Sequence record: SRR20825019_2054 | Strand: one strand, 5' to 3' | DNA: 43,543 bases | In this document: in pieces, positions 1 to 42,539 of the stretch | How positions within the stretch are numbered: the stretch's first letter is position 1 | Layout: each line of letters opens with the position of its first letter | Notes under the pieces: model-generated | What the model saw: only the letters and a program-made list of their open reading frames with translations | Database searches by the model: none | Told to the model about the DNA's origin: nothing | Translations under genes and position numbers: made by a program

Positions 1-36
1 GTCCCTGTCCCTGTCCCTGTCCCTGTCCCTTTCCCT
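1..36 (-). repeat. Coding hexamer repeat (AGGGAC)n encoding Arg-Asp dipeptides
   Basis: gtccct is repeated five times from position 1 and is in frame with the cyclophilin C-terminal RD tract. Confidence 0.85.
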
Positions 37-1586
37 ATCACGCCAGGAACCCCGGTCACGATCACTGCCTTGATGCCGGTCACGGGCCCAGCGGTCGCCG
101 CGATCGTAGCGGTCTCCCCCTCTGCGATCGTATGGGTGGTACCTGCCTTCACCTCGACGCTCGCCGTCTTTTGGGGGTGTCCTGTACCTTTTGAATCTAT
201 TGTATTCTGCACCGATGTGTAAGAGATAGCGAAAAATCATACGTGTGAATAGGAGACTACATACCTGATGTATAGCCTCTGCCCTTACGGGTGATGCCGT
301 CAGGCCCGGGTTTCGGTGGAGATTTCTTGCGAATAGGCGATGGCGACCGCGAAGGTGACTTGGAACGGGAAGATGAGCGATCGCTGCCTCTTTTCCGCAT
401 TTCCTTCTTTGCCTTTTTGGCTTCCTTCTTTGCGCGTTTTTTCTCCTTTTTGGCTTCCTTTTTTGCCTTTTTCGCTGCCTTCTTCTCCTTCTTGCGCGCG
501 CGTTTACGCTCTTCAGAAGAGTCCGTAGATGAGCCTGAGGATGAGTCGGACCTCGAAGACGAGCCAGACGAACGGGAGCGCGATCTTCTCTTCGAGCGAC
601 CTCTGCCCTTCGGAGAGCGAGAGCGTGAAGACCCACTGCTGCTTCTAGAAGAACTTGAAGAAGAGCGTTTTCGGCGCTTCTTGGAATCATCTGGAAATGT
701 TATGAGTTATTCTGTCGTTCGTGAGAGTAGACAATGACATTCCCATGCTTCTATGAAATATTGCCAAACTTATTGCCCCACCATACGCAAGATTTGGCGC
801 AGTGCACACGCAACAAAAATCAAGGCCCTTGGCCCCCTCAGTCCTACCAACTAAAATAACATTTACGACATGAAACTCACCGACACGAACAAGTTCTCCA
901 CAGTTTGATATGGTAATATCAGAGAGAGGCTTGTCCTTTGAGTCGGTCGGCTGGGCCTCAATGGATGTAACGAACTCCATTCCATCAATCACCTGACCAA
1001 ATACAACGTGTTTTCTGCAGCAAAACCCTTGTCAGACAAGAGAGAGCAGTAAAAATTAAGAAACTCACCCATCTAGGTGAGGTGTGGGTCGGGTGATTAT
1101 GAAGAACTGTGAACCGTTGGTGTTGGGTCCAGCATTTGCCATGGAAACCAAGCCCGGTTTGTTATGTGTCAGTTTGAAAGACTCATCGGCAAATTTCCCT
1201 CCATAAATGCTTTCTCCTCCAGTCCCATTGCGATTACTAAAGTCTCCAGACTGAAGCATAAACTTCTTGATCACACGGTGGAAGAGGGTGCCCTTGTACG
1301 TAAGGGGCTTCTTCGTGGTTTTACCAATACCCTTCTCACCTACGAAATATGTGAGCACCACACTCTTCTTCCCTTGTTTTCTAGCTTTTCTACCTGTACA
1401 AAGGCACCTGAAATTCTCGGCAGTCTTAGGCGCGACATCAGAAAACAACTGAATTTTGATGCGACCAAGGGGCGTGTTGCCTATATCAACATCAAGAAAT
1501 ACCACAGGACCTTTTCCCATCTCGGGCCTACTCTTGACACCTGAACAATTAATAGGATCCCAATTCTTTGAAGCGGTACCAATCAT
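1..1586 (-). CDS. PPIG: Cyclophilin-type PPIase with C-terminal RS/RD domain (PPIG/plant CYP63-like); 3' end runs off the window
   Basis: Spliced translation gives the cyclophilin core ([73 protein letters not shown]). It continues into SRSRSP/Lys-rich tracts, [20 protein letters not shown] (resembling the CYP63/PPIG KGRG..RYRTP motif) and RD repeats. GT-AG introns at 1393-1340, 1068-1015, 880-691 and 264-207, plus a probable one at 1579-1541. Start is ATG 1586 or 1520. Confidence 0.9.
695..830 (-). ncRNA. Candidate intronic box H/ACA snoRNA-like RNA
   Basis: Lies inside the only long intron (190 nt). It shows a hairpin at 798-763, ATAGAA (ANANNA) at 754-749, a second stem-pocket-stem hairpin, and ACA at 700-698 followed by TTT. 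The 5' boundary is approximate. Confidence 0.3.
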
Positions 1587-1714
1587 AGCCAAGTCGGAGG
1601 ACACGGAGATGCGTGAACAGGCTCGGCTATGCCCTGGTGGAGTCACAAGTCCCCACTTTGGCAGGCAGTGGGCCCAGCTGTACCTGCGTGTGATTTTCGA
1701 GCGAGTTGTGCGTG

Positions 1715-2260
1715 GTTGGGCCCGGGCCCATCTGCGGGCCGCGCTCCATTGACCTGTACTGGGCTGCGGCCGGGTCCGGCCGGTCCACCGTGAGGCGCCG
1801 GCCCCCCGGCCCGGCGCGACGGATGGCCGCGCCCGCCCCGCCGGGCCGCGACCCTGACCCGCGCCCCGCCGGGCGCCGGCCGGGCCGGCGCGGGCCCGGC
1901 GGGCGCGGCACGGCGGCGGCCCACCCTACCACCGGCTGATCAGTGACGGCCCAGGCCGCCACGACGCCCGGGGGCGGGCTGGCCTGCGCGACGGCCGCGA
2001 CTGATCGACGATCCGATCAGATGATCCTCCTCGAAACGTGCCCTGATTACACCAGGGACCTGGACCCGGCGCTCACACGGCCGGGGCGTCACCGGTGGCG
2101 CGCGGTGGCGGCTACCTGGGCTGGCATTTGATCTGGAAAATGGCGCCAATCGCCGCGGAGGGGGGGTCCGGATCGGATGCCAGGGGACCGGCGGGGCAGT
2201 CTAATCGAGGCGTGAGTCCCGGCCCCGCCCCGCGCAGCCCAGCCAGCGAGCAGCAGGGCC
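1715..2260. promoter_or_regulatory. GC-rich island in the divergent cyclophilin/MSH6 promoter
   Basis: 59 of 60 bases at 1861-1920 are G/C, with dense GGCC/CCGG/GCGC words. It lies between oppositely oriented start codons. GCCAATCGCC occurs at 2145 and, just outside the island, at 2427. Confidence 0.7.
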
Positions 2261-2523
2261 TTCACAACCCGAGTGCAAACAAGGCCATCATGAGTGCTCC
2301 TCCGGATCCAGCATGTTCTAAACCATTGCGGAGAGGGGTGGCCATCGCCCACTCGAGTGGTCTACGTTCTGCGTACTAAGAACGAATAGAGTTCGTGATG
2401 AGTTGGGGGGAAGTCAAAGGCCTACGGCCAATCGCCTTTGAGGTGTGCCTCTAGGTTGCAAAAGCAGCAGTGGTGACAGGACTTCCGTATATAGTTCTGC
2501 GTGCAACAGTCCTCACTCTTATA

Positions 2524-2550: not shown

Positions 2551-2557
2551 TCGAGTC

Positions 2558-5500
2558 ATGGGCCACTCCAAATCTCCCTCGGCCCCTAAACAAGCAAACT
2601 CTATCCTGTCTTTCTTTGGAAAGCAGGGTTCGGTCACCAAAGCATCTTCTGCCTCTCCTTCGTCGCCTACCATTTTAACTCCTCCCTTGGAGAACAAGTT
2701 AGTAGTGGGCTATCAAGAGGGCTGTATGTCGCATGCTAACGTTTCATTAAGGACACTGCAACGGACCGGTAGCCGAATTACGGCCCCCACTCCTCCACAT
2801 GCATCCGGGGACACTCCCCAGACAAGGACTGGAGACACTGTCTTCATACGGAACTTGAACACCCGCGGGAAGGTTGTCAGGGTAGGTCAGACTACTAGTC
2901 GCAACAACTTTTGTACTTAAGTTTGGTTAGGTTATCCGCAACCATGAGGGAGACAAGGTCGCCTTTGTTCTAGCAGACAACGGAAAGGAAGTGGAGGGAA
3001 GTTGCTCGTTTGGTGTCGACTTTGACCACGTGCCCTGTCAAGAAACCACTTCTGGGACTGAGGGCCCTGTCAAAGTGGCGGCGACGCCTCAGACCCGCGA
3101 ACCGAGTGAGAGTGAAAAACAGCCCACCTGCGAGGAGAAATCAAAGAAGTCTAGCCTCACTGAGGAGCAGAGGAAGAGGATCGAGGAGAATAGACAAAAG
3201 GCCCTGCAGAAGCTTAACGCCAAGAAGGGTACTGTGTCTGGCCAGACGAAGCTAAACTTCTTTGGTGCCGGTGTCTCAGCTGCGGTGCCTGCTACCACGG
3301 AATCGGAGAAGCCCTCTGTGAGATCACCCCTTGCTAAGAAGGAGCCTGCTACGGTCTCGTCGGCTGAGAAGGCAGCGCCAAAGAAAGAGAACATAGATCC
3401 CGAGCCAAAGGTTTCACGAGCGGTGGAGGATGAGGATGACGGCCCTGTTGTAGGCAGACGTAAGCGTCGTCGAATCAATTATGTGGAGTCTGATGACGAA
3501 GATGACGATGTCAAGCCCCGCGGTGGTAGTGGCAAGGGGTGCCGCCGCGTCAAGAGGATTGATGATGATGACGAGGAGTACAACGCAGAACAGGAAGCCT
3601 CGGAGGAGAGTGAAGATGAGGTGGGTGTAGCGAGGTGTGTCAGGACTGGGCTTTGTAGTGACGAAACGTACGCGTAGGACGATGACGAGCCCTCGGACGA
3701 TGACGAATGTGACATCGAAGCATTGAAGCGCAAGGCCCGCGGCTCCCCCGAACCCAAGCCCAAGGGAGCTAAGCGTGCCAAGCAGGTCAAGCCAGCTCAA
3801 CGCAACAAACCCTCAAAAGAATCCACTCCAGAGCTCGTGGAGAATCCGACTCCTATCGTTCGCCGCCCTGCTCCAGCAGTTGTACCCGGTGAGATCAATG
3901 AAACCATGGACAGCTTCCGCGCTGGTAAAGACCCTGTGGAAGCAACGAATGTCAACACGCACAACTCCAATGCCAAGCAGGTAGCCAAGACCATGTTCAA
4001 TGACAAGGAAGAGGCCAAACGCGAAAAGGAGGCAAAGTTTCAGGAGAAAAACAAGGACCGTTATGAATGGCTCGTTGACATTCGCGATGCCGAAAAGCGG
4101 CGACCGGATAACCCTGACTACGACAAACGCACTTTGTACGTACCTCCCGCTGCATTCGCCAAACTGTCTCCGTTCGAGAAGCAATTCTGGGAGATTAAGG
4201 CCAAACACTTCGATACTGTAATTTTCTTCCGGAAGGGCAAGTTTTTCGAGCTTTACGAGAATGATGCAGATGTAGGTCACCAGGAGCTAGGACTCAAGTT
4301 AACGGATCGCGTGAATATGAGGATGGCTGGAGTGCCTGTTCCTAACTTTGAGATGTGGACCAGCAAGCTACTGGGCCTCGGATACAAGGTTGGAAAGGTT
4401 GAAGAGACGATGACCCGGGCGCAGATGGATAAAGCTGGAAAGTCCGGCATTGTCAAGCGCGAGCTCGTTCAAATCCTCACACAGTCAGTTCATGAAGTCT
4501 GCGACGCTGCAATGATGCTCACGTGTTTCGTGCAGGTCGACAATTGTTGATGTGGACATGATCCAGGCCGATCAATCGTCATACTGTATAGCAATCAAAG
4601 GTATGAGAAAGTTGCTGTCTCGTTCTTAAGTCTGCCGGTAACGGAATGCGCACAGAGGAGCCGCTGCAGTCACCTACAACCTCATCTGCGGTCAAGTATG
4701 GAGTATGTGTTGTTGAGCCAAGTACTGGAGAGATCTACCTAGGCGAGGTACAGTTGACCTGTTGCATGACGTTGTAAAGATAGCAGCGCCTGACGAGTTT
4801 CTGCAGTTTGAAGATGATTCACAGAGGACTCTTTTCCAGACCATGATCGTCCAGCTTCAGCCTCGTGAAATCCTTCATGAGAAGAGCCAGCTTTCTCGCG
4901 AGTCTACCCGAATCATTGTCAATAATGCCTCATCTGCTGCCGTCACAGCCATTAAGCCCGGAGCAGAGTTTTGGGCCAAAGACACAACCGTCGACGAGCT
5001 TCGCTACTCAGAGTACTTTTGCTCTTCAAGGGAGGATGTTGGATCTTCTGGCTGGCCCAAAGTCCTTTCGGAGGTGATTGCTTCTGATCAAGATTGTGCC
5101 CTCTCTGCCCTGGGCGCTTGTGTTTGGTATCTACGTGACTGCATGATTGATAAGGTATGGCGTAGACATCCACAGAGCATTGCCCTTACCCATAGTATCC
5201 AGGATGTAATTTCTATCGGTAATTTCCACCACTACCATGAGTTGTCGCGATCCTCTCGTTATCTCCATATGGATGGTCAGACACTCGTAAACTTGGACAT
5301 TCTGCAGAACAGCTTCACAGGCGACACTCAAGGGACTTTGTTGAAGCACTTGGACCAATGTTCGACTTCTTTCGGTCGCCGTCTTTTCCGCAAATGGATT
5401 TGTCACCCTCTACGTGATGCTCCTGCCATTAATGAACGTCTTGATGCGATCGAGGAGGTATGAGGGTCCATCACACCCCGGGCGTTCTCACACTGACGTT

Positions 5501-7362
5501 GTCGTGCCACATAATCAGCTTAGCGGAGAAGCCGTCGTCGTAGAGCATATGCTAGGAACGTTCCGTCGCATCCCCGATATTGAGCGCCTTTTGTCGCGCA
5601 TACACGCTGGCGCTGCGCGTATCGTTGACCTCATGAAGGTGGAAGAGGGCCTCAATGCGCTTGTTCAAGCCTTGGACTTAGTGGCAAATGAATTGGAAGG
5701 TGGTCAGTTCAAGTCAAGTCTGCTTTGCAAGCATTTTAAGGCTGCATCCGACCATGTTGTGTCTCGTCTTGAGCATTTTTCCAAGGCATATGATCACCAC
5801 CTTGCTAAGGAAAACGGACTACTCATCCCTCAACCTGGTATTGTCCCTGAATATGATGATATCATGGATACTATCAATGGAGCCGAGAAGGAGCTAGCCA
5901 GCTATCTTCAAGAGCAGAAGTCCGTGCTGAAGTGTAGCAAGATTGCTTTTAAGGATATCCAAAAGGAACCTTGGCAGATTGAGGTGCCCGAGGGTGTGAA
6001 AGTTCCGAACGAGTACCAGAAGATGTCCCAGGCAAAGGGTGTCAAGCGCTATTGGACCAGCTTTATTAAGACCCGTGTTTCCACCCTCGACGACGCGAAG
6101 GTAGGATATCTTGTGATCATCCCAATGTTTATTGTCTTACATCATGTACAGTTGGAGAGGGAGTCTGTTCGATCAGTCGTGCTCAAGAAACTTCTTGCTG
6201 ACTTCGACGTGGACTACAAAGCTTGGATGGATCTTACTCAGCGCTTCGCTGAGATTGACTGTTTGATCAGTCTCTCTCGGACATGCTCCCGTGGTGATGG
6301 TATGGGAAACATTTACAGTTTAGATCGGCCTTCCCACTAAATTTTGCAATGCAGGCCCGATGTGTCGCCCCCAGTTCGTGACTTCTCAAAACAGCAAGCC
6401 AGTCCTGGATGTAAAGGGTTTGCGCCACCCCATGGCAGCCCAGACAACTGATTTTATTGCGAATGACACGGTCCTTGGCGGCGCAGACTCACCTGTGGCT
6501 ATGATCCTCACTGGCCCCAACATGGGTGGCAAGTCGACCCTGCTGAGGCAGAACTGCATTGCTGTTATTATGGCCCAGTTGGGATGTTACGTTCCGGCAG
6601 AGTCTTGCCGTCTTTCTCCAGTCGATCGTATCTTCACTCGGATCGGGGCCAATGACCGCATTCTGGCAGGTCAGTCGACATTTATGGTGGAACTTGCTGA
6701 GACGTCCAATATCCTTCGTTACGCCACGAATGAATCTTTGGTTATTCTGGACGAACTGGTAAGCGTGCACAGATGGGTTATCTTGTCTTAGTCGTTGACG
6801 TGAAGACAGGGCCGGGGAACCAGCACATTTGACGGTTATGCCATTGCTCACTCCGTGCTGTCTCACATTGTTCGCGACATTGGATGTCGCACCATGTTTG
6901 CAACTCATTATCATATGCTTGCGGAGGAGTTCGAGAGCCAATCTGACCTTGTTGGCAATGGGCACATGGCCTGTCTGGTGGGTTGAGTTTGTGCAGTAGT
7001 AATTCTAAGACTCACATGTTCCCTAGCTGGAGGACAACAAGCGTGATGTCATTTTCCTGTACAAGCTTCAAAGCGGTATTTGCCCGAAGAGCTATGGACT
7101 CAATGTCGCCCGACTGGCCGGATTCCCTGAAGAGGTGCTCGACAAAGCGCAACTTGCAGCAGAGAACTTTGAGAACAATGAGAAGAGCCTCTCCACATAT
7201 GCCCGTAAGCGCTGTCACAATGCCACACAAGGACTCCCGGATACCGAGCGGGAAACGTTCAAGGTGCTGTACTACGAGTTGTTGGATACAACACGCATCG
7301 GCAGCAACCTCAGTCTGGATGTAATCAAGTCTTGGCAAGACAAGCTGAACGGGATGGCCTGA
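2558..7362 (+). CDS. MSH6: DNA mismatch repair protein MSH6 (MutS-alpha subunit), ~12 introns
   Basis: Contains [28 protein letters not shown] (MSH6-typical), the mismatch-binding GKFFELYE, Walker [43 protein letters not shown] and [11 protein letters not shown]. Introns include 2698-2751, 2882-2930, 3621-3677, 4484-4535 and 4601-4655. Stop TGA ends at 7362. Confidence 0.96.
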
Positions 7363-7520
7363 AGGAAATGGTTTAATCATACTTGACTAAATATGCTTTT
7401 CAAGATCAGTTTCTGGGCATAAGGGAGGCTCCATTGTAGTCGCAGTTTCGCGAGCGAACCCTGTCACAATATAACGCAGGCATAGCAGAAGTTACTGGAA
7501 TATGTCACGGGCGGTCGATC

Positions 7521-9365
7521 TTACTCGACTGCTCTCCATAGCTCGCTCCACTGCTTCTTCCAGTTCCTGCTAATCGAGTCACCGAATGCTACCATGTCAA
7601 GAACGATTACCCTTACGTGCAGTGATGAAAGAGCAGTTCCTGCTGCCTGCCGGACTGGCGTATGTTCAGGAGCATTGGTCTTGTGCTGGTATAGATCCTC
7701 CACTCTTGTGTCCAAGAATCCAGAAGCGGCGTGATTGACGGCTTCCTCAAACCTCTGAACCTGTCACGAGAATTGTTGGTTGTCAAAAATCACATTGTGT
7801 TGGGTGGCAGCGTAGACTAACGTCGTATGGATTGTTCACGTGTGAAGGCCGTTCGGGCGCCACGATGTTAAATAAGTCCGGATCTGAACTCTCTTCCTCT
7901 GGCCCCGCATTCCCTACGGGATCCTCCATAGACCGTCGATATTCTTGAAGCGCCAGGTGAATACAGTGCGCCATCGATATGGTTGCCGGCTGAAAACGGG
8001 ATCTATATTTGCTGAAGCTTGAACAGAGGACAAAACTCACCTTTCCCGTATTGGCCATTGACACAGCCGTGAGATGGGCGTCAATGACCAACTGGTATGT
8101 CTGACCAGTAGCGGTATCTGCTGTGAAAAGATCCACCCCAGCCTGGCAAGAAGAATGAGAATCGTGCCTCGAAATTGAGAAGCATCTTACTACCTCTTGG
8201 CAGATACTTCCAAGGACAGGGACACTGAGTGAGGTCTCTTTTTGGCCCCATCCGTACCCTTTCTTAGGAGTTTTGACCATATTGCCCTTTGACCTCATTA
8301 GTTGCCGGAGCTTCTTGACAAGGATTCCATGCATTTGCAACATGAACATCACTTCGTCTACTCCATAATCCAGACTCAGAAAGCTCGCGAGTAAGCCGAC
8401 CTCAAAATGCGAGTTGGCATATGCTTGAATGTTCTGTAGTAAGTCCCATCCCATCTAATGATGTGTAAACATAAACACAGCAAAAGCACCACCCGCCGTA
8501 CAAACCATGTGCACAATATTCTTCACGCCATATTTCTTGTCAAAGTAAGCTTTTGTCATAGTAGGAAAGTCTTCTTCTGCCTTCATGCCCTTAGCGCCCC
8601 CAGTAGGGGCCGTGCGGGAGTATATGTCACGAAGTTCACTTTCGATGTGGCTGAATATCTACAGAGATGTTAGAACCGCAAAGTGCGGGCTTGTCAGCAG
8701 CAACCCCCACCTCCTCGGCTATTTTAAGCACCCACACGACAGGTCTAACGTTTGGGACATAGTTTCTTTCGTCCAGAATCCCTAGTAGGGCGCAAAATCC
8801 TCCATATTTCATGGTTATATCCTCCAAAGAGAACGGCGTGTCAGTGGTGACAAAGTTCCTGGATCCCCTAGGTGTATGACTCCTATGAACGCTGCAATCA
8901 TCTTAGATTACGACTCGTGTATCACTTCTGCGACCTACCTTTGTGTAGAATTTTCAAGAGCATCATAATACATTGTCCCTCTTCGAAGCTGTGACTTCGT
9001 CGCAGAGGAAAGGCGCTTACCCTTCTGGGAAAGCAGCTGGCCTGACTGGTCATAAGGCTTAACCTGAAGCACCTCTTCAGTGCTACCAACAAGTAAATAT
9101 CATCACTGGAGCGGACCACTATTTTCGTACCCTTCGGGGCCTCTCAGCGTATTGCGCGGTCCCCTCACAATCCTCACGTCAGCTACATAGTTTCCAAGCT
9201 CGTCGAGCTCAAACTGCGAAAAGTTAGTTGAAGAGGAGCTGCTCCTCATGACATACTGACATGAATATTATTTGCTATAAGAACGTCATAATACTTCCTC
9301 CGCTGGGCTTCGTCAAGTTCAGACACACTCGAATACCACTGAGTTGGGGACAAGAGCCCGGACAT
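7521..9365 (-). CDS. Multi-exon hypothetical protein with a TSNAXIP1-like (translin-associated factor X-interacting) helical region; possibly flagellar
   Basis: A continuous spliced frame runs from ATG 9365 (MSGLLSPTQWY) to TAA 7521. The segment FPTMTKAYFDKKYGVKNIVHMMGWDLLQNIQAYANSHFEVGLLASFLSLDY resembles the TSNAXIP1-family pattern by eye only. Confidence 0.6.
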
Positions 9366-9479
9366 ACTTCAGTAGTACGCTCCTTGAGGACACGCACAGA
9401 CCTAAGCCTGAGTCACTGTATTTTATGGGCAGATGCCACAGGAAATCATCAAGCCCACAACCCAGCGCTAGTCACACGT

Positions 9480-9790
9480 GGCTACCGCCCACTACCGGCG
9501 ACACTCGCATGCACTGCGCGCACTGGGGTCGGTGACATCGGTGACCGGAGTGACGCGGGCCGCGACTGGGCCTCATCCCGCGGAGGCCCGAGTCACCGGC
9601 ACTCGCACCGCAGCACGGGCCGCGGGACGCCGCTGCTGGGCCGGGCTGAGTTCTCGGTCCCGGGAAGCGGCCGCCCAGTGGCGCGGCCGTCGCGGCCCGC
9701 CCGACGGGCGGGCGCCCTCCGGCCGGGCCCCCGGCCGGCGGCGGCCCGGCCGGCGCCGGCGCCGGAGCGCGGCTGGGCGGGGCCGGGATC
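9480..9790. promoter_or_regulatory. GC-rich island in the divergent hypothetical/eIF3c promoter
   Basis: 58 of 60 bases at 9721-9780 are G/C. GTGAC repeats occur at 9530-9560, and GCCAATC lies just downstream at 9903. Confidence 0.7.
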
Positions 9791-10255
9791 GTCTGTCCGA
9801 CAATCTCACCCCATCGAGATTGATAAGTCGGAAATTGAAATTCCCATATTAGAGGTCGAACCGCCCCAAAGCGCCCAGATTTGTGACCACCCACCACACA
9901 AAGCCAATCGAGCCGTCCGATAATACCGACAGCCGTCCGGGTCAGCAGACCAGCTGCATAGTCAGTGTTTGCGCCTACCACGATAGAATCATCAAGGGCA
10001 CTACAGAGAAGGCTATCCGTAGCCGTGAGTGTGGCAATGACATCGCTCCTTATCCTGTTCACTAGGCTTGAACAGCTCTGAAGCCCTTTCCGGCCGCAAT
10101 GGACCTGCGCTGACAAACTAGATGCACAAGAGTGCTCGACAACATACCGCTGCGGAACTAGTTTGGGACCGGGGAGGTGTAGTACAGATTCGTGAGGTCC
10201 TATCAATAAGTACATGTACACGCACAGCTGCGAAGATGTGAACGTTTAGGTTAAG

Positions 10256-12933
10256 ATGTCTAAGTTCTGGCAGGCTGATTCCGCCTCTGAGTCCGAGGAA
10301 GAGTCTTCTGAGGAAGAGGAGACGATTGTGCAGGCTCCTCAGAAGCAGGGATTCTTCCGTGATGACTCTTCTGACTCTGAGGAAGACGTGAGTTGTAATT
10401 GTGCAACGGCTGGGGTGTGGAATTGACAGTACATGTTTCATAGGAGAGGCGAGTCGTTAAGTCCGCACGGGATAAGAAGGCTGAGGAAATTAAGAACTTG
10501 GCTGCCACCACTAGAAGTTTCATGAACATTAATGATTGGGGTCAGATTCAGTCTAGCTATGAAAAGTTTCATAACTTCGTCACCAAAATGAAGGGCAACC
10601 AGTTTGAGAAGGTGTCCCCTAAAGCATACGACGCATATTATCGCCTCTGCATCCACTTGGAGGAATTCGTTAATAAGAGCTTGGCCGATAAGGAAGCCAA
10701 GAAGAAGTTGAGCACCACCAACTCTAAAGCGCTGAACTCCATGAAACAGAAGATTCGTAAGAACAACAAAGAAATTGAGGGTCTTCTTGAGGCTTTTAAG
10801 AAGAAGCCTAACTGGGAAGATTCTGCTTCTGAGGTAGGGCTGTTGATGTTGTTGTTTGTTGAGGGTTTTCTCTAAACGAAGGTTTAGTCTGAGGAAGAGT
10901 CTGAGGAAGAGTCTGAGGAGGAGTCTGAGGAGGAGGACGTGAAGCCAACAAAGGGACAGGTAGCTGCTCCTGTGCAAGGTGATGAAGATGATGACGACGA
11001 TGGCTTTGAGACCAAGGCAGTGAAGGATAAGAGGTGGCGCAAGGCCAAGCAGGAGGCTGCGGCTAAGATGACTATGGAGGGCGTGAACAAACGCCTTGCA
11101 GAAATTATTTTGGCGAGGGGCAAAAAGGGAACAGACCGCATGGATCAGGTCAACCAGATTCAGGACTTGGTGAAGCACTGTGAAGAGGTGCCGTCAAAGA
11201 AGGTGGAGATCACGATGCATTTGATTTCTGCTTTGTTCGATGTCAACCCTAACATGACCTCTCACATGCCCATTGAGCTGTGGAAGGAATGTGCTAAGAA
11301 TATTGGTATTATCTTGGATGTGATTGAGGCTGACAAGAACATTGTGGTGGTGGATGCTGGCGCTGTCGCCAAGACTCCTCTTGATATGGGAGATGTACAG
11401 GAAGAAAATGCGGAGGCGGAGGCGGAGGCGACGAAGGCTGAGGCAGAAGACGATGGCGACAACGTGAAGGTTGTGGGAAGCCTCATTTCCTTCATGGAGC
11501 GCTTGGACGACGAGCTTTTCAAGAGTCTCCAGCACACCGACCCTCACACCCAAGCATACATGGATCGCCTCAAGGACGAGCCCACTATGATCTCTCTTGC
11601 TGAGCGTACTCAGGCTTACTATGAGCGCGCCAATCAGATGGACTGTGCTGCCCGTGCTGCTGGGCGTGTGATTGAGCATGTGTATTACAAGCTTGATTCC
11701 CTTCGTGAAATGATGGACAGCGCCGTCGGCAAGACTGGCGAGAAGATTGACAGCAAGGAACAGATTCAGAGCCTTGCTGTAATGATTTACAAGTACGGTG
11801 ATGAACGCGCCAAGACTAGAACCATGCTGTGCCACATCTATCATCATGCCATGCATGATCGCTTCTACGAGGCCCGCGATATGCTCCTGATGTCTCATCT
11901 TCAGGATACCATTTATCACTCGGATGTCACCACTCAGATCATGTACAACCGCACCATGGTTCAAGTTGGTCTCTGCGCATTCAGGGCGGGACTGATTACG
12001 GATTCCCAGGCTGCTTTGTGCGAAATCTGCTCTGGCGGTAGGCTTAAAGAACTTCTTGCCCAGGGCATTAGCGTGTCCCGTTTCGGTGAGCGCAACATTG
12101 AGCAGGAGAAACTCGAGAGGAGGAGGCAGATGCCCTACCACATGCACATTAATTTGGAACTCCTTGAGTGTGTGCATTTGATTACCTCCATGCTTCTCGA
12201 AGTGCCAAACATGGCTGCAAACCGGTACAACCCCAAGGTTAAGGTTATCAGCAAGCCTTTCCGGCGGTTTTTGGATAACTATGAGAGGCAAGTTGTTGCC
12301 GGGCCCCCCGAGAACAACCGTGACGTCATTATGGCTGCGGCAAGCAAACTTGCCTTGGGAGAGTGGCAGAAGTCCTGCGATTATCTGTTCAGCCTTGGAA
12401 TCTGGAAGCTCTTCGTCAACCCCGATGCCTGCAAAGAAATCTTGAAGGGATGCATTAAGGAGGAAGGCTTGCGCACTTTCCTTTTCCAGAACTGTTCCAA
12501 TTATGAGAGCATGACCACGGAGCAGCTCTGCCGCTTGTTCGAGATGGAAGAGAAGGAGGTTCACACTATCGTAAGTAAGATGATGATGAGCAACGAGTTG
12601 AACGCCTCCTGGGATCAGCCAACTGGTACCATCATCATGCACAACGTAGATCCCACTCGCTTGCAGTATTTGGCAATGAACTTTGCTGAGAAGGCTGCTC
12701 TCTTTGTTGAGACCAATGAGCGGCTTTTGGACTCGCGCACGGGTGGTTATGGATACAAATTCGACCCGAACCAGAAGCCTCAGGCCCGCCAGTTCCGTGA
12801 TAGGGAGATTTACAACCCTCGTGGTGTAAGCTCCATGTATGCTGCCAGCCGTCAGTTCCCGCAGAACAGGCAGCAATACCAAGCCTATCAGCAGCGCAAG
12901 GCCTATGGGCAGCGCACTGCTCAGCGGTATTAG
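10256..12933 (+). CDS. EIF3C: Eukaryotic translation initiation factor 3 subunit C
   Basis: N-terminus MSKFW..SESEEE; after the first intron, RRVVKSARDK. Also ERLDDELFKSLQHTDPHT, ARDMLLMSHLQ, RRQMPYHMHINLELLECV and the PCI C-terminus SKMMMSNELNASWDQPT. Two short introns near 10388 and 10834. Confidence 0.97.
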
Positions 12934-25886: not shown

Positions 25887-26254
25887 GTTGAGCAAGTGAA
25901 CCTGCTTTATGTTTTAAATAACTGGAAAATACCTTCATATATCACCTTTAAACTAGAACTTAGCGTGAAGGAGGGTGACGTGTCCGGGCTTTTGATTTGA
26001 GGCCTCCAGATCTGTTGATTCTCAGCTGGTGAAACGTTACGGCACTGACTCTCGCAGCATTGTAGTAGTGACAGACAGCTGGTATGCTCCGGCTAAAGTA
26101 GTGCTTGTCGATAAGAACTAGTGTGGCGTTGAAGCCGCTGGCAGACGAGGTCATTGCCCAACAATGTCAAACTCTGAAAGTTGTTTGCCAAACTGACCAA
26201 TAGCACTTTGTCCACGAGTGACTGGCAATAGCACAACGGAACTGAGCAGTCAGT

Positions 26255-26830: not shown

Positions 26831-26989
26831 CTGCGCCAATCTCCTGTATGCTACAATGTTACCTTCTCCATTCTCACTCGCGAGTGAGCCAATCATCGTT
26901 CTACGATGACAACGCCGAACTTGATAAGAATCAAGTGTCCTCAGGAGTATAGGTGTGAACTCAGCGAGACGTCGGGGCAGCAGGTGACG

Positions 26990-32744: not shown

Positions 32745-33420
32745 ACGGTTCGGGTGGGGGGAAGAGTACAGTCCAGCCAGGCCATACCACCCAGGTTTTC
32801 GGCTTTTGCTGGGCCTAGCGAAAAGCTTTTGCTGTCCGTACCATTTGCCCGGCCCGGCCGTAAGTATCACCCTACTACGCAGCTACTATCCGATCAGTAT
32901 GCTGCTCATAAGGAGCCCCCGCCAGACCGGACATGGGGACCGTGCAGTGTGGCGAGTGGTGGGTGATGAGTGCCGGTGTGGTGCGCGTCGGCTTTTGCGG
33001 CGCCAGAAGTTGCGGGGGGAGGGCTCAAATTACGCATTCGTAACATCAGGGTAACCTGGTATATTGAATTGGTTTCTTTCCATAGTGTCATTAACATTGC
33101 ATAATGGAAATGATGGTTACTCTCAATTCACTGGGAGTGCGTGCAACGGTTACAATGGTCACGGGGAGTGCGCCCCGGCGATCGCCCCGCGAGGGCCCGT
33201 GGCAAGCCGGCCCGTGCCTGACGACCATGCGGCATCCACGCGGTGCTCAATCAGCCATGGTGCCTCGTCACACGCCCTAAAGTAGAGAATCCGTACTCAC
33301 ATTCTCTTGCCTTTCCAGGGCTGGGGCGGGAGCCGCCAGGTCATCATACCTACTCGACGGGCCCGATGGCGTCTATGCAGGTGCTATGGCCGTGCGGAAA
33401 GCGTGATGCCGGCAGGCCTT
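32745..33420. promoter_or_regulatory. Weaker, interrupted GC-rich island in the divergent secreted-protein/coiled-coil promoter
   Basis: GC-rich patches at 32745-33020, 33165-33245 and 33315-33420 flank an AT-richer core between ATGs 32642 (-) and 33517 (+). ATTGGC (reverse CCAAT) at 33481. Confidence 0.5.
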
Positions 33421-33516
33421 CCCCATGCTGCATGCGAGAACATGAATTGCGCTCCTACGACGTGGCTGCTACATGTCCAAATTGGCTAGCCGCATATAAG
33501 TGTGTTAAGGACAATT

Positions 33517-36500
33517 ATGAATCTATTCAACGGCAAAAAGAGAACAACTACACAAACTGCCAAGGATATTGCACTGACGGATATGGAAGCGCAGGCTTCC
33601 GCCGAGGATGCAGGTGGAGGAAACACGGGGCAGCAAGGCTCCGGAAACCCAGCCCCCTCATCCAGTGCAAAGACAGATCTTAAGTATACAAACTCCTTTG
33701 CAATGAAAATGCAGGAGAAGATGAAGGAGAAGAGGCACTCTGTGACAGATGTCCCTCCTCTGGTGAGCGGCGTTAACAACAGCACTTTAAGTAGTGACAT
33801 GAGCAACTCTGTTTTTGAGGATAGGGTTCCGAGTCCATTCGCCGAAAAACCTCAGCAGAGCAAGAACAAATCGTCTCCGCCTCCTAGTCCCAGACAGAGC
33901 CGAGATATCGGTGGTGCTAGTGCACTTTTTACTCACCTTGGAGGATACGCTCGAGACCACAGTTCTAAACATGCAAATAACAAAAACTTGCAGACGGACG
34001 TTACATTCTCAACTGTGTCGCCTATTGTGGAGCGGGCAAAAAAGAGAGTGAAGATGGTTAAAGCCGTGGACACCCAGACAGATTTCACCACTGCTCTCGC
34101 TGTACAGGATGTAGCCCGCATGAAGCAGTCTGTGGACGACTTGCAAAGTGCCCTTCAGGAAACTGAAAAACGAATGAAAACCGAGTATGAAAAGAAGGTT
34201 GGGGAGGAAGTGAAGAACCTTCATGGCTGGTTTAGGGAGCGACTGGAGTACGAAAAGCAAGGGTTCAACTCGAAGCAGGACAAGCTCCGAAATGCCTATC
34301 GCCAGAAGATTGAGGATGTCCGTGTAGAGATCAACTATGTATACACGTCCAAGTTTCGTGCTTTGGAGGAAAACTTCCGCAATGAAGCCACTCTCCATGA
34401 CGCTATTATAGCAGAGTTCAAGAAGCAGCTCAAATATAAGGATGACATGATCGAAGTGATGGGCCAGAATGTCAGGTGTGTATTTGCATGTGGTGTATTT
34501 GCGAAAACTAATGTGAACTTTCATGCAGGCGTTGGGAGCTCAAGTACATTGGGATCAAGGATCAGTATGAAGTTGAAAAGCGCAAGCTCCGTGCCCGTGT
34601 ACGCGACCTTGAAGATGAACTCCATAAGATTCAGGTGAAGCGCGGCAGGCAAGCTTTAGAGGAGAAGAAAGAGAAACAGAAGAAGGAAGAGGCCAAGAAA
34701 GCTGAAGAGGAAGAGAAAAAAACTCGAAAGCAGCGGAAGTTGGAGGAGGAAAAGCGCTTGGCAGCTGAGTTGAAAAAGAAAGAAGAGGAGATTGCGAAGG
34801 CCGCAGAGGAGGCTGCAAAGGCTGCAAAGGAGGCCGCTATGCAAGCACAGAGCGTGAATGCGCTGCTTCCACTTACATATGCATGCCCTTCATGTGACGA
34901 AAAGGTTAAGGTGACTGATAAGGGGGAAGTAGAGCTCCTTGGGGAACGCACAAAGGAGAAGAAAAGGCCCAAGAAAGAGAGCAAAGGGTCCACAAAGGAA
35001 AGTAGAGCTCCTTCCACATCCCGTGAGGCATCGAAGGAGCCTACACCGTCATTGACCCCAAAAATCTTCGATCCTGAGGTTGGTGCTTCTGTTCCAGTAC
35101 GTATGGAATCAGTTGCCGATGAAAAGAAACCGAAGAAGGGCAAGAAGAAGAAGGGAGCTAATAAGGGCGGCAAGACACCAAAACTACAATCTCCAGAACG
35201 ATCGAAGGGAATTGTTGAGGAAGAGGAGGATGTTGAAAAGCTGAAACCAACTCAGAAGGACATGGACAAGGCTTTCTCTGCTGCCTTGGGCGCTGATGAA
35301 GGGAAGGATGAGACGCCCAAGAAAGGAAAGAAGGGAGCGAAAGGGACGAAGGGTACCAAAGGAGGAAAGAAAGCGCCTGCAGCCCCACCACCCAAGGAGG
35401 TCAAGGAGGAGTCCGTTCAGTGTGACATAATCGGCGGAGACAATGCAACAGGGCACAGCAGTATTCCTAGTGGTGCTGGCAGTCGCGATGTCAGTTCTGG
35501 TGGGAATGATCTGACCGCTGAGTCTCCTTCCGCAAGTGGCGCGCCGTCTGTAGGTGTTGCCGTGCCTCCTCCACCGGTTGATCCTAAAGAAATCCAAAGA
35601 AGGGAGCGTGTTGTGGAAGCCCGTGAGAAAGCACTAGAAAGGAAAGAGAAGGAAGACAAAGAGCGCAAGGAGAAGGAAGATAAGGACAGGAAGGACCGCG
35701 AACGCAGGGAACGCGAGCGCAGGGCAAGGGAGGAACGCGAGCGAAGGGCGAGAGAGGAGAAGGAGCAGAAGGCTCGGGATGAGAAAGAAAAACAAGAGAG
35801 AGAAGAAAAGGAAAAGTTGGAACAAGAGTTAGCAAAGCTCAAAGACAAGTTGTCTTCACTGCCACCAGAGCTTATTCAATCGCAGGCGCCAACTCCGGCA
35901 AGATCACCGGCTAGAACTCCTGGGCGCTCTCCTGCTTCGACACGCCCCTCGTCCCAAGAAAGATCGCGCGAGAAACCCCGCCCTCAAGAACTCGAGATAC
36001 CAGAGACTCCTGTCGAAAATCAAGAGGAGGAGACGCCTGCGACTGCGAAGGTCGATGCGGATGGTGAGAATCTTCCAAAGAAGTTGCCAACGAAAGGGAA
36101 GAAGGGATCAAAAACATCAAAGAAGGGTTCAAAGGGCAAGTCTCGGATGCCTGCAACTCCAGCAGCAACTCCTTCTACTGCAAAGAAAAAGAAGGCCGCT
36201 CCTGCTCCAACTCCGGGCTCCAAGAAGACAGCAACACCGAAGGTAAACCTAAAGGATGAAATTAAGCAACTTGAGGCTGAGCTGGATGAAATCGATGACA
36301 AGATGTATGGTGAAGACCGAGAAAGGGAGAGACTCAAGGCTGAAGAGGAAAAAAGGAAAGCCAAAGAGGAAGCTGAAGAAAGAAAAAGACTCAAAGCTGA
36401 GGAAGCCGCGAGAGCCAAGCAAGAGAAGGAGGCAGCAAAGGCCGCCAAGGAAGCGGAGAAAGAAGCGAAGAAGAAGGCAGCGAAGGAGGCGAAGGAAGCT

Positions 36501-39500
36501 GCGAAGGCAGCAAAAGATGACAATAAGACAGAGGACCAAGATGATAAGCCCGAAGAAGCAAAGAAATCTACTTCAAAGAAGGCGAAGAAGGGCTCCAAGA
36601 AGAAGGGTGGAACAAAGACTGCGTTACCATCTGCGCCCACCACAGCTGTGCAGAGCGCAGGTCAGGAGCTGGAGGTTGGAGATAAGGACAAGGATGAAGA
36701 GGGAGATCACTTTGTGAACACTCTTCAGGAAGTGTCCCTGGACGAGTCGGCAAGTCAGGACAAACCTTGGTCGCGTCCGTCCACAGTTCGGCCTTCTACA
36801 ACAAATGTGGTGAAGGATGATGACAATGCGAAACCTCCCATCGAGGAACCAACAGGGCAGGATCAGCAGCAATCCACCGGAGGAGCACAAGATCTGCCAC
36901 AAAAGGAAGCAGAGCCTGATCGTGATTCTGCCCCCCCAACTGATGCTAGACCCAACGATGGGGAGACGGAGGCTGAGGAGCAGGAAGAGGACGAAGGATC
37001 AAAGGAGGATATTGTGGATGATGCCAAATCAGTGAAATCCGGGAAATCCCTTTCCGTCGCAAGCCATGATAACGAGAGTGAGAAAAAAGAATCGGAAGCG
37101 CACGTGCCCTCAAATGAAGATGAACAGTCATCCACTAAAGAGAAACCTGCATCTCCTGTTGAGGCTAACTTAGAAGGCGCTCGAGAAACTGAAAAAGAAG
37201 CTGTTGGTGTGGATACCACGACTCTTGATGAGGATGTTGGCAACGAAGGAGGCACAGAGTTGGTTGATGAAAAGGCTGGTGAAGAGGAATCTGCGAAACC
37301 TCTTGAGGGTCAAGACGAACAGACGCCTAATGTACCTGAGTCATCTGGGCCTCCACCAGAGTTGCCCGAGCAGAGGGAAGGCCCTTCGACCAGCGAGCAA
37401 CTGGCATCAAAGTCTGCTGCGGAAACTACCAGCGAGTTGGTTGATACTTTCGCAGACCATGTGCCCAACGAGTCTGAGTATGAGGCTGCTACTCCAGAGA
37501 GATTGCACATTGCCAGTCAATCACCCACACATTCTGCTGAGTTGGCTGAAGAAAATGCTCCCGAGGAGAGTGCTTACCAGAAAGACCCTGATTTGGATCC
37601 TTCAGTTGCATCAACGTTGGATTCTCTTCACACCAGAGAACAACTGGAGGATATTGAAAGAGATATCGAACAGAGGGCAACCGAGCAATCAAATGCCTTG
37701 AAGTCTGAAATGAATCAAATGTCTATGGAATTACAAGCGAAAGAATATGAAATGGAACTCCTGCTTGAACAGGCTGAACAAATGAAGAAACGCAAAGAGG
37801 TTGAGCTCGAGGAACGTCTTCGCTTAGAATCCCAGTTGGCTGAAGCCCGTGAAGATGATCTAAAGCGGAGACTTACAGTTGAAATTGCAGCAAAGAAAGA
37901 GGCGGAGCTTGCGGAGCAGTTCTTGTATCTGCAGAAGATCATGGTGGACAAAGAGTCGAGAATCAGAAAAGAAATGGAAAGCAAGGAATCTTGGATGAAG
38001 GCTGCCCAGGAAGATCGCGAACGTGTTCTTGCTGAGATTATGGCTGCCAAAGAAAGTGAGTTGAAAGAACAGGTCAAGCAGAAGGAACTTGATATGGAAA
38101 CCAAAGAAAAGGAATTGTTCGCGAGGGAAAGTCTCTTTAAGAAAGAGATTGAGAATGTCAGGGCGGCATTGACAAAGAAGGAGGCAATATTGAAGAAGAG
38201 AATGACTACTCTGAACACGTTGGATGATGAATTGAAAGAGAAGGAAGCCTATATTCATGAGCATGAGAAAGAATTGGAAGCAAAAGAAGAAGTTATCAGG
38301 GCTTCTGAAATCCAACTAGAGTCCAATACTATCATGCTGAACGAGAAAGAAAGGCAGGTTTCTCTTATAGAAAATGAGGCTCGCGAGGAAATGGCCACGA
38401 TAATGGCCAAAGAGGCGGAGATTAAACTAAAGGAAAGCGAGTTGACCCATAAAGAGAAGGAAATCGACGAACGAAGGGATGAAGTGAAGGAACAGTTGCG
38501 TATTGAAGTCCAAGAAGAGGTTCAGAAGGAAGCTGATGACGAAGTGAAAGAGAGAATTCGTAAGGAGAAGCTTATGTTAGAGCGAGCGCTCAATCGCGAA
38601 AGAGCAAAACTAGAGAATGAGGTAATGACAGAGAGGCAGGAACTCGAAATGCAAGTTCGAGCGGAGTATGAGGTTAAAGCTCAACTACAGCGGGAGGAGG
38701 AACAGGCAGAAATTGAAAAACTTCGTCGACAACTGGAGAACGAGCGGAACAAACTCGCTCAGGAAAGAGATATGATAGCTGCGCGTGCCAAGGAAGAGCT
38801 TCGTATCGAAATGGAACTAGCGAAGCAGTTTGAGGAGTCGGAGAGGTCGTCTACAGCTCAGGCATCGATTCGATCCCCGTCTGAAATGAAGTCATCAAGG
38901 CCTACAACAGCCCGGATTGATGAGACAGGCCCCACTCCAGGCCCCGATTCAGTTGTCGCTGAAAGCATTGTAGAAGGGGATCAGACAAATGTCCAGGCCG
39001 TCGATGAAGGATCAAAGCCGTCATCTGCTTCTGCGGAAGCAACACTTCCCACAACCACTGGCCCTGTACTATCGGAACGCCAAGCTACAGTGCTCAACGA
39101 GGCACCCGTTAAGGCCCCTCGTTTGTCGACCCAGGTGACCGATCAACATCCTGGTTCTGCGCCAGGCAGGACACTCACAATGAGTGAGGGTGAATTTGGA
39201 GATTTCATTGAATACCGAGCAGCACCCTATGACTCCGCGCCTGCAACCCCACGAGGCGGGGCTGCACACACCATCATATCTGAGCATGAAGAGCTTCAGC
39301 CTCTGGACCACCCTGAAGGAGCTCCCAGTGCTGCTAAACCAGAAACTACTCCAGGATCCCCGGTTGAAGGGAAGACTATCAACGAAGGCGAAGATGCAGC
39401 TGCACCTGCAAGTGCACCCACACAAGGTGTGCCGGAGCGAAGGTAAGTGTGCCGCTAACGGACAGCTGCCATGTTCTAACAATGTATTTTGCAGTGAGAC

Positions 39501-41189
39501 TCCCGACTACATTCCGAAGAGACCTCCAACCGCTGAGCTGGAAAGGCAGATTGCGGAAGCTCAGGGCAGTGATGAGGAAGAGGAAGTTGTCAAAGAACGA
39601 CCCACGACCGCCGAGTTAATGAGGGAGATTGAGGAAGAGCGTGAGAGGGCCAAGACCGAGGGAATGGTACTTGCAGAAGGTGAAGTTCCACCGTGGGAGC
39701 AAGCCGAAATAGAGGTGCGAGAGCGTCGAGCACAGCTGACCGGCATACCCGCAAGCGTGGAGAAAGAGGCTAAGGAAAGAACCGAAGAAGAACAGATAGA
39801 ATCTATTGTAGGAAAGAAACAATCTTCTGATGTGGAAGGTGTGGCGGATGTGTCACTCAGGCCTGGAACCACTCCAAATAAGACGGATGCCCCTGATTCT
39901 GTGGAGAGTCGGGGTATTGCCAGTGCTGACGGAGCCGATGCAGAAAACAAGTCCATCTTGAAGAGAAAACTGCAAGGAGAGCCGATGTCTGGGTCATTAG
40001 ACACGGGATTCAACTCTGAGAATGAGACAAGTGACATTGGCTCTACAGCAGCCATTGATGATAATGTGAAGCGGAGGTTCGGCGAAAGAAGATCAAGTGA
40101 GATTGTTTTGGACGAAGATGGCAACATTGTCACCACAGGAGTCCCTATGAGAGCAGAGGATATGATCAAGCAGCATGAGGCAAATGCTGAAAGATCGAGG
40201 ATATCATCTGGAAGGTCAAATGCTGCCGCTGAGATTATTCTCAAGGAGAACCAAATAGTTAACCTTGAAATCGCTGTAGCAGAAAGGGATGCCAATATCG
40301 AAGAACTCCAAGCACTGGGCGAGTACTTGCGTGAGGAAATTACTCAGAAAAACCAGGCCGTTGAAGACCTGCAGAACTATGTCAAGGCAATGGAGGAAAG
40401 GACAGAGAAAAGAGAGGAGGAGTTCAGACAAATCCTGCAAAGAGCAGAAGAGAAAAGAAAAGAAGAAGTCCGCAACCTTCAAAAGGTCTTCACTAGTTTC
40501 CAACGGGATATGCAAAGGCAGCTTGATGCGAAAAACCAAGAAATGGTCCAAGCAACGTCGGGTCTTGCGGAAGAGGTAGTTCACTACGAGAAGGAGGTAC
40601 GAGCTTTAAAGAACGCATTGCTTGTTGATTGCATAGATCTAATGCCTTGCAGATTGCTAAAAATCGAGAGGAGGCTAAGAAACAGGAGGAACTACATCAT
40701 ATCCTATCAAGTAGACAAGGTGCAGCAATGGCTAAACTCGTGGAGGAGAACCAGGCCCTGCAAGACTTCATCAAGGAGGAATTGAAACTACGAAACGCTA
40801 GCATGAATGGCAAGTGGATGAAGAATCCGGACGATAACAGTGACCCTGTTTGGGTGGTGACTAGAAAGATGGAGGATGGCCTTTATTCTGGTGTGGACTA
40901 TATGGGCTTCAGTCAAGTGTGGAAGCAATATGAGGATCAGTTCGAGAACAACAACAGCAAACTTCCAGAAGTGAAACAAGCCAAACCACAACGAGAGACT
41001 CAGAAGCCAAGATTTGAGTTTGTCAAACCTCCTGAAGCACCCCCCGAGGACATTAACGTGCCTGAAATGAGTGTAACCAAGGTAGCCCAGCCTCCACAGG
41101 CAGAAAAACCTTCACATTCACATCGGCCACAGAATCGCAAGACTGTTCCATTGCCCAAAGTGCCAACACTCAACACGGCACGATTCTGA
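33517..41189 (+). CDS. Very large (~2500 aa) charged coiled-coil/low-complexity protein; N-terminal region resembles DUF4709 (C10orf67)
   Basis: Four exons join in frame via introns near 34476-34528, 39443-39494 and 40597-40652, with long E/K/R heptad tracts. QTDFTTALAVQDVARMKQSVDDLQSALQETEKRMKTEYEKKV..LRNAYRQKIEDV resembles DUF4709 by eye. Confidence 0.75.
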
Positions 41190-41241
41190 GTCGAACACCG
41201 CTATCATTCACAATAAACCATAGATTATTGAGAGCCACCAA

Positions 41242-42539
41242 TCAATTGACCAAAGCAAGCCGAGATGTTATCCATCTCCTGAAGTAATCGCAGTCAATAA
41301 GGTCACATGCTTGGGGTAAATGGCCATTGTTGTGCGTAATGCAAATAATTTCAACAATGTTCTTCCAATCATTGGACAAAATCAGTCGGCAACAGGAGTA
41401 CACTCCACACACATGTAAGGGAACACCCAGACATACAACACCACATACCCAGAAAATACCAATCCCGGTCAATGCCATCAAAGTGAATCCAACTATTGCT
41501 GGACAGCACCACACGGCAAACAAAAAAGACAAAAACCCGTGCAGCATTTGAACAGCACAAATACGATTAATCCAAACCACGCCAAGGCGATGTGCTTGCT
41601 TTCCACAACAACACGAAAATAACAAACACTGCAAAGACACATTGAATAATATCGTGTGAATGGGCCATAAGCACAGGAACAAAACAACATAAAAAGCAGT
41701 AGTGATGTCGTATGTAATATACGTAATCATGCCAATAAATATAAAGGACACTAGCCAAAACACCATATACTGGAACTGAATGATTTTTCGCTGTGCGCAG
41801 TTAGAACCTTCGAAATCGTCACCAAAATGGAATAATTGCTTACCCTATGAAAGTGAATGTAACCCATTCTGTCAGTATTCCGACGATCATCTGAAAACCA
41901 TGCATATCTGTCATACTCCAAATCGAACTCGTCTCCCGAGCTTTCCCTTCTGTCTCTACCCCGCCCCGGCTTCTTTGGAGCAGACAAAAGAACCTTTGCT
42001 TCCACGTGGTCAACATCCTTCGATATGGGAAAGGCAAGCAAAACAGGCGTTGGAGGCCTCGTTCGAGGTTCTGTTTGGCTACAGCCAGCCGTGGTTTGCG
42101 TAATGGTTTCACTCCCGGGGCCATGCAAGGCCTCGTCTACCATACGTCTGACCTCCACAGGTAGATGAGGCCCTAGACCACCATGATTTTCAACTAGCCT
42201 GGCAAGATCTGTTCCCTCTAACCATTCGGGAAGTGATGTCACCCCCATTCCAACTGAGTCTGTCGCGTTTTCATCCCGTGGCAACTGCAAGCAGAACCAC
42301 TCCATTGGCTCAACTTTATCTGCTTCCCCTGAGTCCATCTTTTGAACAATTGGATACTTTCCCCATGGCCCTCCAGCAAACGGAGCAGACTTCACAAGGG
42401 GATTTTGAGACTGTCGCCGTGCTCGTTGTATTTCTCGTGCCTCCTTGAACCTTTTCACCATTCTTCCAAAAAAGCCATCTTCGCCACCTTCAGGCGGATC
42501 ACCACTGCCCTTTTCGAGTTGGCTCTCTGGATCAGTCAT
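41242..42539 (-). CDS. Hypothetical membrane protein with soluble N-terminus and about four Cys-rich TM segments
   Basis: ORF 41751-42539 joins ORF 41242-41766 through an intron gtaagc...ctaactgcgcacag (YIHFHR|RKIIQFQYMVFWLVSF...). The last exon has several hydrophobic stretches. Confidence 0.7.

Follow-up and report, generated by a model that had tools for sequence, protein, structure and literature searches.

Does a run of genes in which every gene lies on the strand opposite to its neighbours reflect a rule of the genome that carries it, or a lucky streak? The question is raised by a stretch of 43,543 nucleotides from sequence record SRR20825019_2054, called the window here. Within it, 13 consecutive genes between bases 1 and 42539 (G1 to G13, Table 1) follow the strict order - + - + - + - + - + - + -. 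The 13 genes are functionally unrelated to one another, and the DNA is best read as an ordinary nuclear stretch from a compact, intron-rich, protist-like eukaryote, its long reading frames interrupted as they would be by short introns. An earlier note on this DNA had described the alternation and had proposed a genome built from obligatory head-to-head pairs that share one promoter and tail-to-tail pairs that share one terminator zone. The alternation was confirmed by four independent lines of evidence – Pfam matches, a codon scan, gene models and the polarity of introns in cDNA. Its best explanation, which we hold at about even confidence, is that head-to-head pairs are arranged around GC-rich islands, with their tails meeting the tails of the next pair, and that strand switches are commoner than 50% without being obligatory.

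Strand alternation of the 13 genes

Stop-to-stop open reading frames (ORFs) of at least 100 amino acids were scanned singly against Pfam. There were matches at E<=0.01 in 24 of the 116 ORFs, and every match above its curated cut-off was on the strand expected under alternation. On the (-) strand these were cyclophilin, SNF2/Helicase_C/ZGRF1-N and ZPR1; on the (+) strand they were MutS I-V, eIF3c, LYR, EF-hand and DUF4709. A codon log-odds scan, trained on exons with named Pfam families, placed coding-like segments exclusively on the expected strand, block by block, including blocks free of Pfam matches (7.5–9.1, 22.8–25.9, 29.9–32.6 and 41.8–42.6 kb).

A purpose-written, intron-aware gene finder based on dynamic programming returned 15 models, 13 of which are the alternating genes. 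The other two (+3..1544 and -4572..5548) are short, many-exon, fragmented antisense shadows and were not accepted as genes. The first-pass models were kept, with cDNA joints used as a correction. A second pass, run with trained splice matrices, was dropped because it carried several models past stops via spurious introns; it had retained the same strong genes, and its additions were all low-scoring (2 to 14).

The cDNA evidence comes from two runs of one sample in one study, which are not recorded as RNA, yet gave spliced cDNA contigs on alignment. The contigs were aligned to positions 7001–27000 of the window, with 38 joints (15 of them shown) and 15 loose ends (12 shown). All ten of the shown joints in (+) genes were GT..AG (two in eIF3c, six in the chalcone-isomerase-like gene, two in the LYR gene), and all five in (-) genes were CT..AC (two in G3, two in ZPR1, one in G9). 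Intron polarity at these joints therefore gives the strand of six genes without recourse to the gene models. The contigs also carry 15 listed single-base differences from the window in the aligned range, e.g. at 12012, 12522 and 12591 in eIF3c. The cDNA may derive from a different allele or individual than the assembly.

The alternation could be an artefact of annotation if co-oriented genes were hidden in the gaps or fused within G2, G9 or G12, or if one of the orphans G3, G11 and G13 were not a gene. G3 and G13 have no homologues, G11 and G13 are outside the cDNA range, and the gene finder is home-made, with a second pass that over-extended its models. However, the long models G9 and G12 are each one gene, because their exons are parted just by introns of about 50–108 nt, too short to leave room for a promoter. 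The cDNA shows G3 and G9 spliced on the (-) strand, and the coding signal of G13 is clear in one frame. The check for missed co-oriented genes that the earlier note had called for found none by Pfam, periodicity, tRNA or Rfam scans: ORFs in the GC-rich gaps had neither coding periodicity nor a Pfam match, the tRNA scan of the window found no tRNA, and the Rfam scan at the gathering score found no family. An annotation artefact is extremely unlikely.

Islands, start sites and spacing

Counting the gap in front of a possible 14th gene, there are GC-rich islands in all seven head-to-head gaps and in none of the six tail-to-tail gaps. The islands are 334–1129 bp long, with 59–74% GC and a CpG observed/expected ratio (o/e) of 0.90–1.17, and so have no CpG deficit. 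Pooled, they have 68.5% GC and an o/e of 1.0, against 41% GC in the tail gaps and 48.9% GC and an o/e of 0.74 in the remainder; the contrast in CpG o/e is mild. All remaining GC-rich patches of the window are within coding exons. CpG islands are commonly taken to be at least 200 bp long, with GC above about 50–55% and a CpG observed/expected ratio above 0.6. All seven islands have the size, GC and o/e of CpG islands by these thresholds.

We infer that the islands are promoter-associated, CpG-island-like upstream DNA able to serve both flanking genes. Other origins are possible, such as GC-biased gene conversion at promoter recombination hotspots, or formation as a by-product of divergent transcription. 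The depth of cDNA over islands was 0 in both runs at 16339–17005 and at 21008–21674, and 0.01 and 0 at 25677–26343. No 3-base periodicity was detected in the islands, and the long ORFs within them, which lack Pfam matches, were treated as composition artefacts. The islands are not copies of a mobile element or of one repeat: the similarity between them is of low complexity (60–75%), with short cryptic GC-rich tandem motifs. GGCCGG-type hexamers are enriched in the islands (59 seen vs 16.5 expected, in six of the seven), as are GAGTGA (11 vs 1.0 expected) and AGTGAC (8 vs 1.1 expected).

Two details of island sequence were noted in passing. The largest head-to-head gap has two C runs, one of about 20 bases (21350–21369) in the AT-richer spacer between the island blocks and one of about 13 (21848–21860) inside the right-hand block. 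At the right edge of the last island, between 43010 and 43075, there are two inverted CCGGAAGTG-like words about 40 nt apart; the word presumably resembles an ETS-type binding site.

Loose letters at some contig ends match what we take to be the 3' part of a SMART-type template-switching adaptor, marking the 5' end of an mRNA. Other contig ends presumably carry transposase library adaptor and are no true transcript ends. In the four genes with mapped cDNA 5' ends (Table 1) the leaders are 6–33 nt long. The gap between ZPR1 and the LYR gene has outward start sites at 20748 (-) and 22018 (+), 1270 bp apart, with a 1.1-kb island between them, and two further head-to-head gaps have one mapped start each (10240 and 26957). 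The outward-facing start sites that the earlier note had proposed to look for were accordingly seen on both sides in one gap and on one side in two more. An AT-rich octamer (at least 7 A/T) was found 15–70 nt before the ATG in 14 of 14 cases, against a background of 0.383 in random 55-nt stretches (P=1.5e-6). Each gene therefore has an AT-rich (TATA-like) core of its own, on the outer flank of the island.

The claim that head-to-head partners share one promoter was too strong. With separate ZPR1 and LYR start sites, an AT-rich box for each gene and an island of 0.3–1.1 kb in between, the partners have an intergenic region in common, not a start site or core element; what is common is therefore an island-bearing region and not one compact promoter.

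The start-to-start distances reported earlier were reproduced. From ATG to ATG they are 972 (1038 with the inner ATG of G1), 891, 916, 1291, 1104 and 875 bp, with a further 956 bp to the possible 14th ATG at 43495. The stop-to-stop distances are 129, 153, 125, 117, 34 or 225 (depending on the G10 model) and 561 bp; the earlier description of these gaps as tiny holds for five of the six (34–225 bp) and fails for the last.

The tail-to-tail gaps are filled with transcribed sequence in most cases that the cDNA covers. Contigs are unbroken over 7026–7565, across the last exons of the MSH6-like gene and G3, and over 22362–23039, across the LYR gene and G9. Two contigs overlap at 19169–19196 in the tail gap between G6 and ZPR1. 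In the gap between G4 and G5 the eIF3c contig covers to 13032, with library adaptor next. Contigs thus span or overlap three of the four tail gaps within the aligned range, the pattern of convergent, overlapping 3' ends. A contig spanning two genes is not to be read as a single transcript; it shows that transcribed sequence fills the tail gap. The convergent 3' ends therefore have a zone in common, and on this point the earlier proposal of a shared 3' zone for tail-to-tail pairs stands. No consistent motif emerged when the tail gaps were searched for common poly(A)-signal words.

The sixth tail gap, 41190–41750, is unusually long and A/C-rich on the + strand. A 200-codon hydrophobic ORF at 41245–41844 (-) resembles several membrane helices. 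It was rejected as coding, with a frame score of -22.9, a flat composition across codon positions and no Pfam family; its lone match (E=9e-6) among 1.84 billion representatives was a repetitive junk ORF.

Chance run or genome-wide tendency

Bidirectional promoters are usually defined by start sites less than 1 kb apart (PMC7817982, PMC6585903, in the parts available to us). In the window the partners are on opposite strands with outward-facing ATGs in all seven head-to-head gaps, and outward transcription is seen in the cDNA 5' ends at 20748 (-) and 22018 (+), but in this sole fully mapped gap the start sites are farther apart than that. As the ZPR1-LYR pair, at 1270 bp, falls outside this definition, we class the arrangement as a variant of the known head-to-head/tail-to-tail organisation and not as a member of the mammalian class. 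Like the CpG-island bidirectional promoters of vertebrates, the window has outward transcription from a GC-rich region without CpG deficit, partners of housekeeping type, and gene bodies in which the CpG o/e is below that of the island (0.74 vs 1.0). Unlike vertebrate pairs, it has widely separated starts (in one pair), an AT-rich box for each gene and very short leaders; the genome is compact and protist-like, its introns are about 50 nt long, and every gene of the window is paired, not a minority.

The spacing of the window is ordinary. In Theileria, intergenic lengths follow the order 5'5' > 5'3' > 3'3', which was read as the space needed by upstream regulatory DNA, and the same pattern holds in fungi (PMC4761415, in the part available to us). 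The long head-to-head spacers, very short tail-to-tail spacers and overlapping transcripts of the window are like those of Theileria in that text. Unlike the window, Theileria has neighbours that are about half co-oriented, and the available part of PMC4761415 does not mention GC-rich islands. Long-head, short-tail spacing was already known in compact genomes; the unbroken run and the GC islands are what stand out.

The earlier note had set the window against the polycistrons of trypanosomatids. Both would be orientation rules on the scale of a genome, and they are opposites – trypanosomatids have long same-strand runs with rare strand-switch regions, whereas the window switches strand at every junction and has a start site for each gene. 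In yeast, shared divergent regions are short and AT-rich, unlike the spacers of the window, which are about 1 kb and GC-rich. The likeness to yeast divergent promoters that share a nucleosome-free region is in the divergent pairs, for which coupling of neighbours is discussed (PMC5654408, in the part available to us). Keyword searches of the literature, covering listings and abstracts, found neither a eukaryote with near-strict alternation nor GC islands in protist head-to-head gaps, which is weak evidence of absence.

In a randomly chosen window, 12 switches at 12 junctions have a probability of (1/2)^12 = 2.4e-4 at a 50% switch rate, in agreement with the figure of about 1 in 4096 given before. 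The likelihood is 0.014 at a rate of 70% and 0.069 at 80%. A single window may be compatible with a genome-wide rule and with a lucky run alike. If a high-switch genome is given a prior of about 1%, the balance already tips to a real excess of switches; with a prior of 0.1% it does not. We lean slightly towards a real genome-wide excess, a total in which near-obligatory pairing has a small share at most.

The arrangement that we prefer, pairs around islands with tails meeting tails, may be understood as a matter of packing. The GC island would serve as a CpG-island-like promoter region for the genes on either flank. If termination takes about 0.1 kb and a promoter about 1 kb, the promoter would be about ten times dearer; an island flanked by two genes would be favoured because of this difference, and to flank every island in this way would be the cheapest packing. 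The expected outcome would be a genome-wide switch rate clearly above 50%, without being obligatory.

Several observations weigh against this explanation. In one pair 1270 bp separate the mapped starts, and each gene has an AT-rich box to itself. Several islands are in two or three blocks, and one island per gene fits equally well as a shared one; if the split blocks were one island per gene, the packing advantage would be gone. The function of the islands is wholly our inference. The structures of G5, G11, G12 and G13 are outside the cDNA check, which was made on the alignment to 7001–27000. The window is single and was picked for its oddness from a very large scan, and a genome of 10,000 genes with a 50% rate is expected to hold about 1.2 maximal runs of at least 12 switches. 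Finally, the switch rates of four Theileria species, computed from the 5'5', 5'3' and 3'3' counts in the available part of PMC4761415, are 46–53%.

The last of these points speak for a chance run, in which orientation is about half and half, the window is an expected rare streak, and islands are an ordinary promoter feature of every gene, independent of its orientation. The Theileria baseline comes from compact genomes with a like spacer asymmetry, and the division of islands into two or three blocks, the separate box and start site of each gene and the lack of functional relation among the 13 genes all fit. Still, the odds of the run in a random window are 1 in 4096, low enough to be outweighed if a high-switch genome has a prior of as little as about 1%, and the lineage is already unusual in that its promoter gaps are about 20–25 points GC-richer than its genes. 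A chance run is a serious candidate, with a probability somewhat below even. Strict obligatory pairing, with nearly every gene paired around one island and a switch rate of at least 90%, would account for the 12 of 12 switches (13 of 13 should a gene truly start at the 43495 ATG) and for islands in seven of seven head-to-head gaps. Its evidence is one window, however, the keyword searches found no such eukaryote, and with starts 1270 bp apart there is no mechanistic reason why genes should have to pair; we regard it as very unlikely. Unlikely, too, is a lineage that builds its chromosomes from repeating units, each a CpG-island-like block with a gene leaving on each side and 3' ends overlapping those of the neighbours. 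Nearly all neighbours would then switch strand genome-wide, and the units would be a protist counterpart of vertebrate CpG-island promoters, arisen independently; this we also doubt.

If the excess of switches is true of the whole genome, the sharing of promoter space would put strong constraints on gene orientation in this eukaryote, which would then make a natural test for ideas on divergent transcription, on supercoiling between adjacent genes and on the compaction of genomes. If the chromosomes were built from repeating units, they would form a mirror image of the polycistrons of trypanosomatids. If the run is due to chance, the window is a well-annotated case of a long-head, short-tail spacing that was known before. 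Whatever the orientation rule, it is unusual for a compact protist-like genome to have promoter gaps 20–25 points GC-richer than its genes; the cause could be CpG-island-like chromatin or GC-biased gene conversion at promoter hotspots.

Lineage and individual genes

The eIF3c exon was used to place the host. Among 8000 proteins scored there were 3287 matches at E<=1e-20. The top-ranked among the matches listed were about 43% to 61% identical, the upper part of this range being reached over about half of the query alone. The relatives among the matches listed were mostly plants and streptophyte or other algae, and the protein encoded in the window itself is absent from the collection. Metagenome contigs gave 103 relatives, none close; the best 80 of them were no more than 48% identical across most of the query. 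The host appears to be a poorly sampled eukaryotic lineage, because neither proteins nor metagenome contigs gave a close relative of eIF3c. The coordinates of the genes, islands and mapped 5' ends are collected in Table 1.

Table 1. Genes, GC islands and mapped cDNA 5' ends of the window
Feature	Position	Strand	Details
G1	1..1586	-	cyclophilin; ATG 1586 or inner 1520; Pro_isomerase 1.4e-34 (1068-1925), 1.4e-08 (690-1031); model
G2	2558..7362	+	MSH6-like MutS, many exons; MutS I, II, III, IV, V in order; stop TGA 7360-7362
G3	7492..9365	-	spliced orphan; CT..AC joints 7565-7616, 7757-7819; coding segments on (-) only; stop 7492-7494
G4	10240..12933	+	eIF3 subunit C; ATG 10256; eIF-3c_N 1.7e-144, PCI; GT..AG joints 10387-10444, 10831-10886
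G5	13087..16374	-	SNF2 helicase, ZGRF1-like N-terminus; SNF2-rel_dom 1.5e-46, Helicase_C 3.5e-20, ZGRF1-like_N 3.4e-06; start model-based
G6	17268..19143	+	chalcone-isomerase-like; ATG 17290; 6 GT..AG joints; contig piece begins 17268
G7	19269..20748	-	ZPR1; ATG 20733; jr-ZPR1 1.7e-58, ZPR1 zinc ribbon x2; CT..AC joints 20186-20240, 20401-20458
G8	22018..22430	+	small LYR-motif protein; ATG 22024; GT..AG joints 22095-22144, 22311-22362; stop 22428-22430
G9	22548..25886	-	many-exon orphan, ~900 aa; CT..AC joint 23039-23093; coding segments on (-) only; model
G10	26957..29830	+	several EF-hands; EF-hand_7 1.2e-38 and others; first in-frame ATG 26990
G11	29865..32642	-	single-exon acidic orphan, 925 aa; codon score 297 over 896 codons
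G12	33517..41189	+	coiled-coil protein, ~2500 aa; 4 exons, 52-56 nt introns; model
G13	41751..42539	-	orphan, 262 codons; frame score +50.6 vs -35 to -82 in 5 other frames
Possible 14th gene start	43495..43543	+	putative; ATG 43495, AT-rich box upstream; 49 nt inside window
Island, head-to-head gap 1	1642..2320		73% GC, CpG o/e 0.97; no 3-base periodicity; ORFs without Pfam match
Island, head-to-head gap 2	9447..9846		74% GC
Island, head-to-head gap 3	16453..17113		66% GC; three blocks
Island, head-to-head gap 4	20869..21997		71% GC; two ~0.45 kb blocks flanking AT-richer spacer
Island, head-to-head gap 5	26203..26886		68% GC
Weaker island, head-to-head gap 6	32890..33431		59% GC
Weaker island, head-to-head gap 7	42697..43030		62% GC
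cDNA 5' end	10240	+	eIF3c, ATG 10256; adaptor-tailed, both runs
cDNA 5' end	20748	-	ZPR1, ATG 20733; adaptor-tailed, both runs
cDNA 5' end	22018	+	LYR, ATG 22024; adaptor-tailed, both runs
cDNA 5' end	26957	+	EF-hand gene, first in-frame ATG 26990; adaptor-tailed, run X1

Four of the 13 genes have no Pfam family (7492–9365, 22548–25886, 29865–32642 and 41751–42539), and two of these, G3 and G9, are spliced in the cDNA. A homologue search with the G3 ORF against longer proteins gave none among 644 candidates, one with the G13 ORF gave none among 469, and the Pfam scan of G11 found no match. Some of the family assignments are close to their thresholds. The Complex1_LYR match of G8 has 25.0 bits against a cut-off of 24.8, and the DUF4709 match of G12 has 27.7 bits against 27, with codon scores of 104, 579, 113 and 55 on its successive (+) ORFs. 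The Chalcone_2 match of G6 (1.3e-4, 22.3 bits) is below the Pfam cut-off of 27. The stop of G10 is at 29639 if unspliced, or at 29830 in the model.

In eIF3c, a predicted intron at 11965–12009 was contradicted by a cDNA contig that is continuous over 10886–13032. Antisense to the eIF3c exon there is a 582-codon ORF, at 11194–12942 (-), which matches no family and has a low codon score (24 over 252 codons). It probably mirrors the codon bias of the sense strand, and was treated as a composition artefact.

The cyclophilin gene is one gene, with a Lys/Arg/Ser-rich tail that extends past the left edge of the window. A perfect GTCCCT x6 repeat (1–36) lies within this low-complexity tail, and an (AG)13 dinucleotide run at 2524–2550 ends 8 nt 5' of the start codon of the MSH6-like gene.

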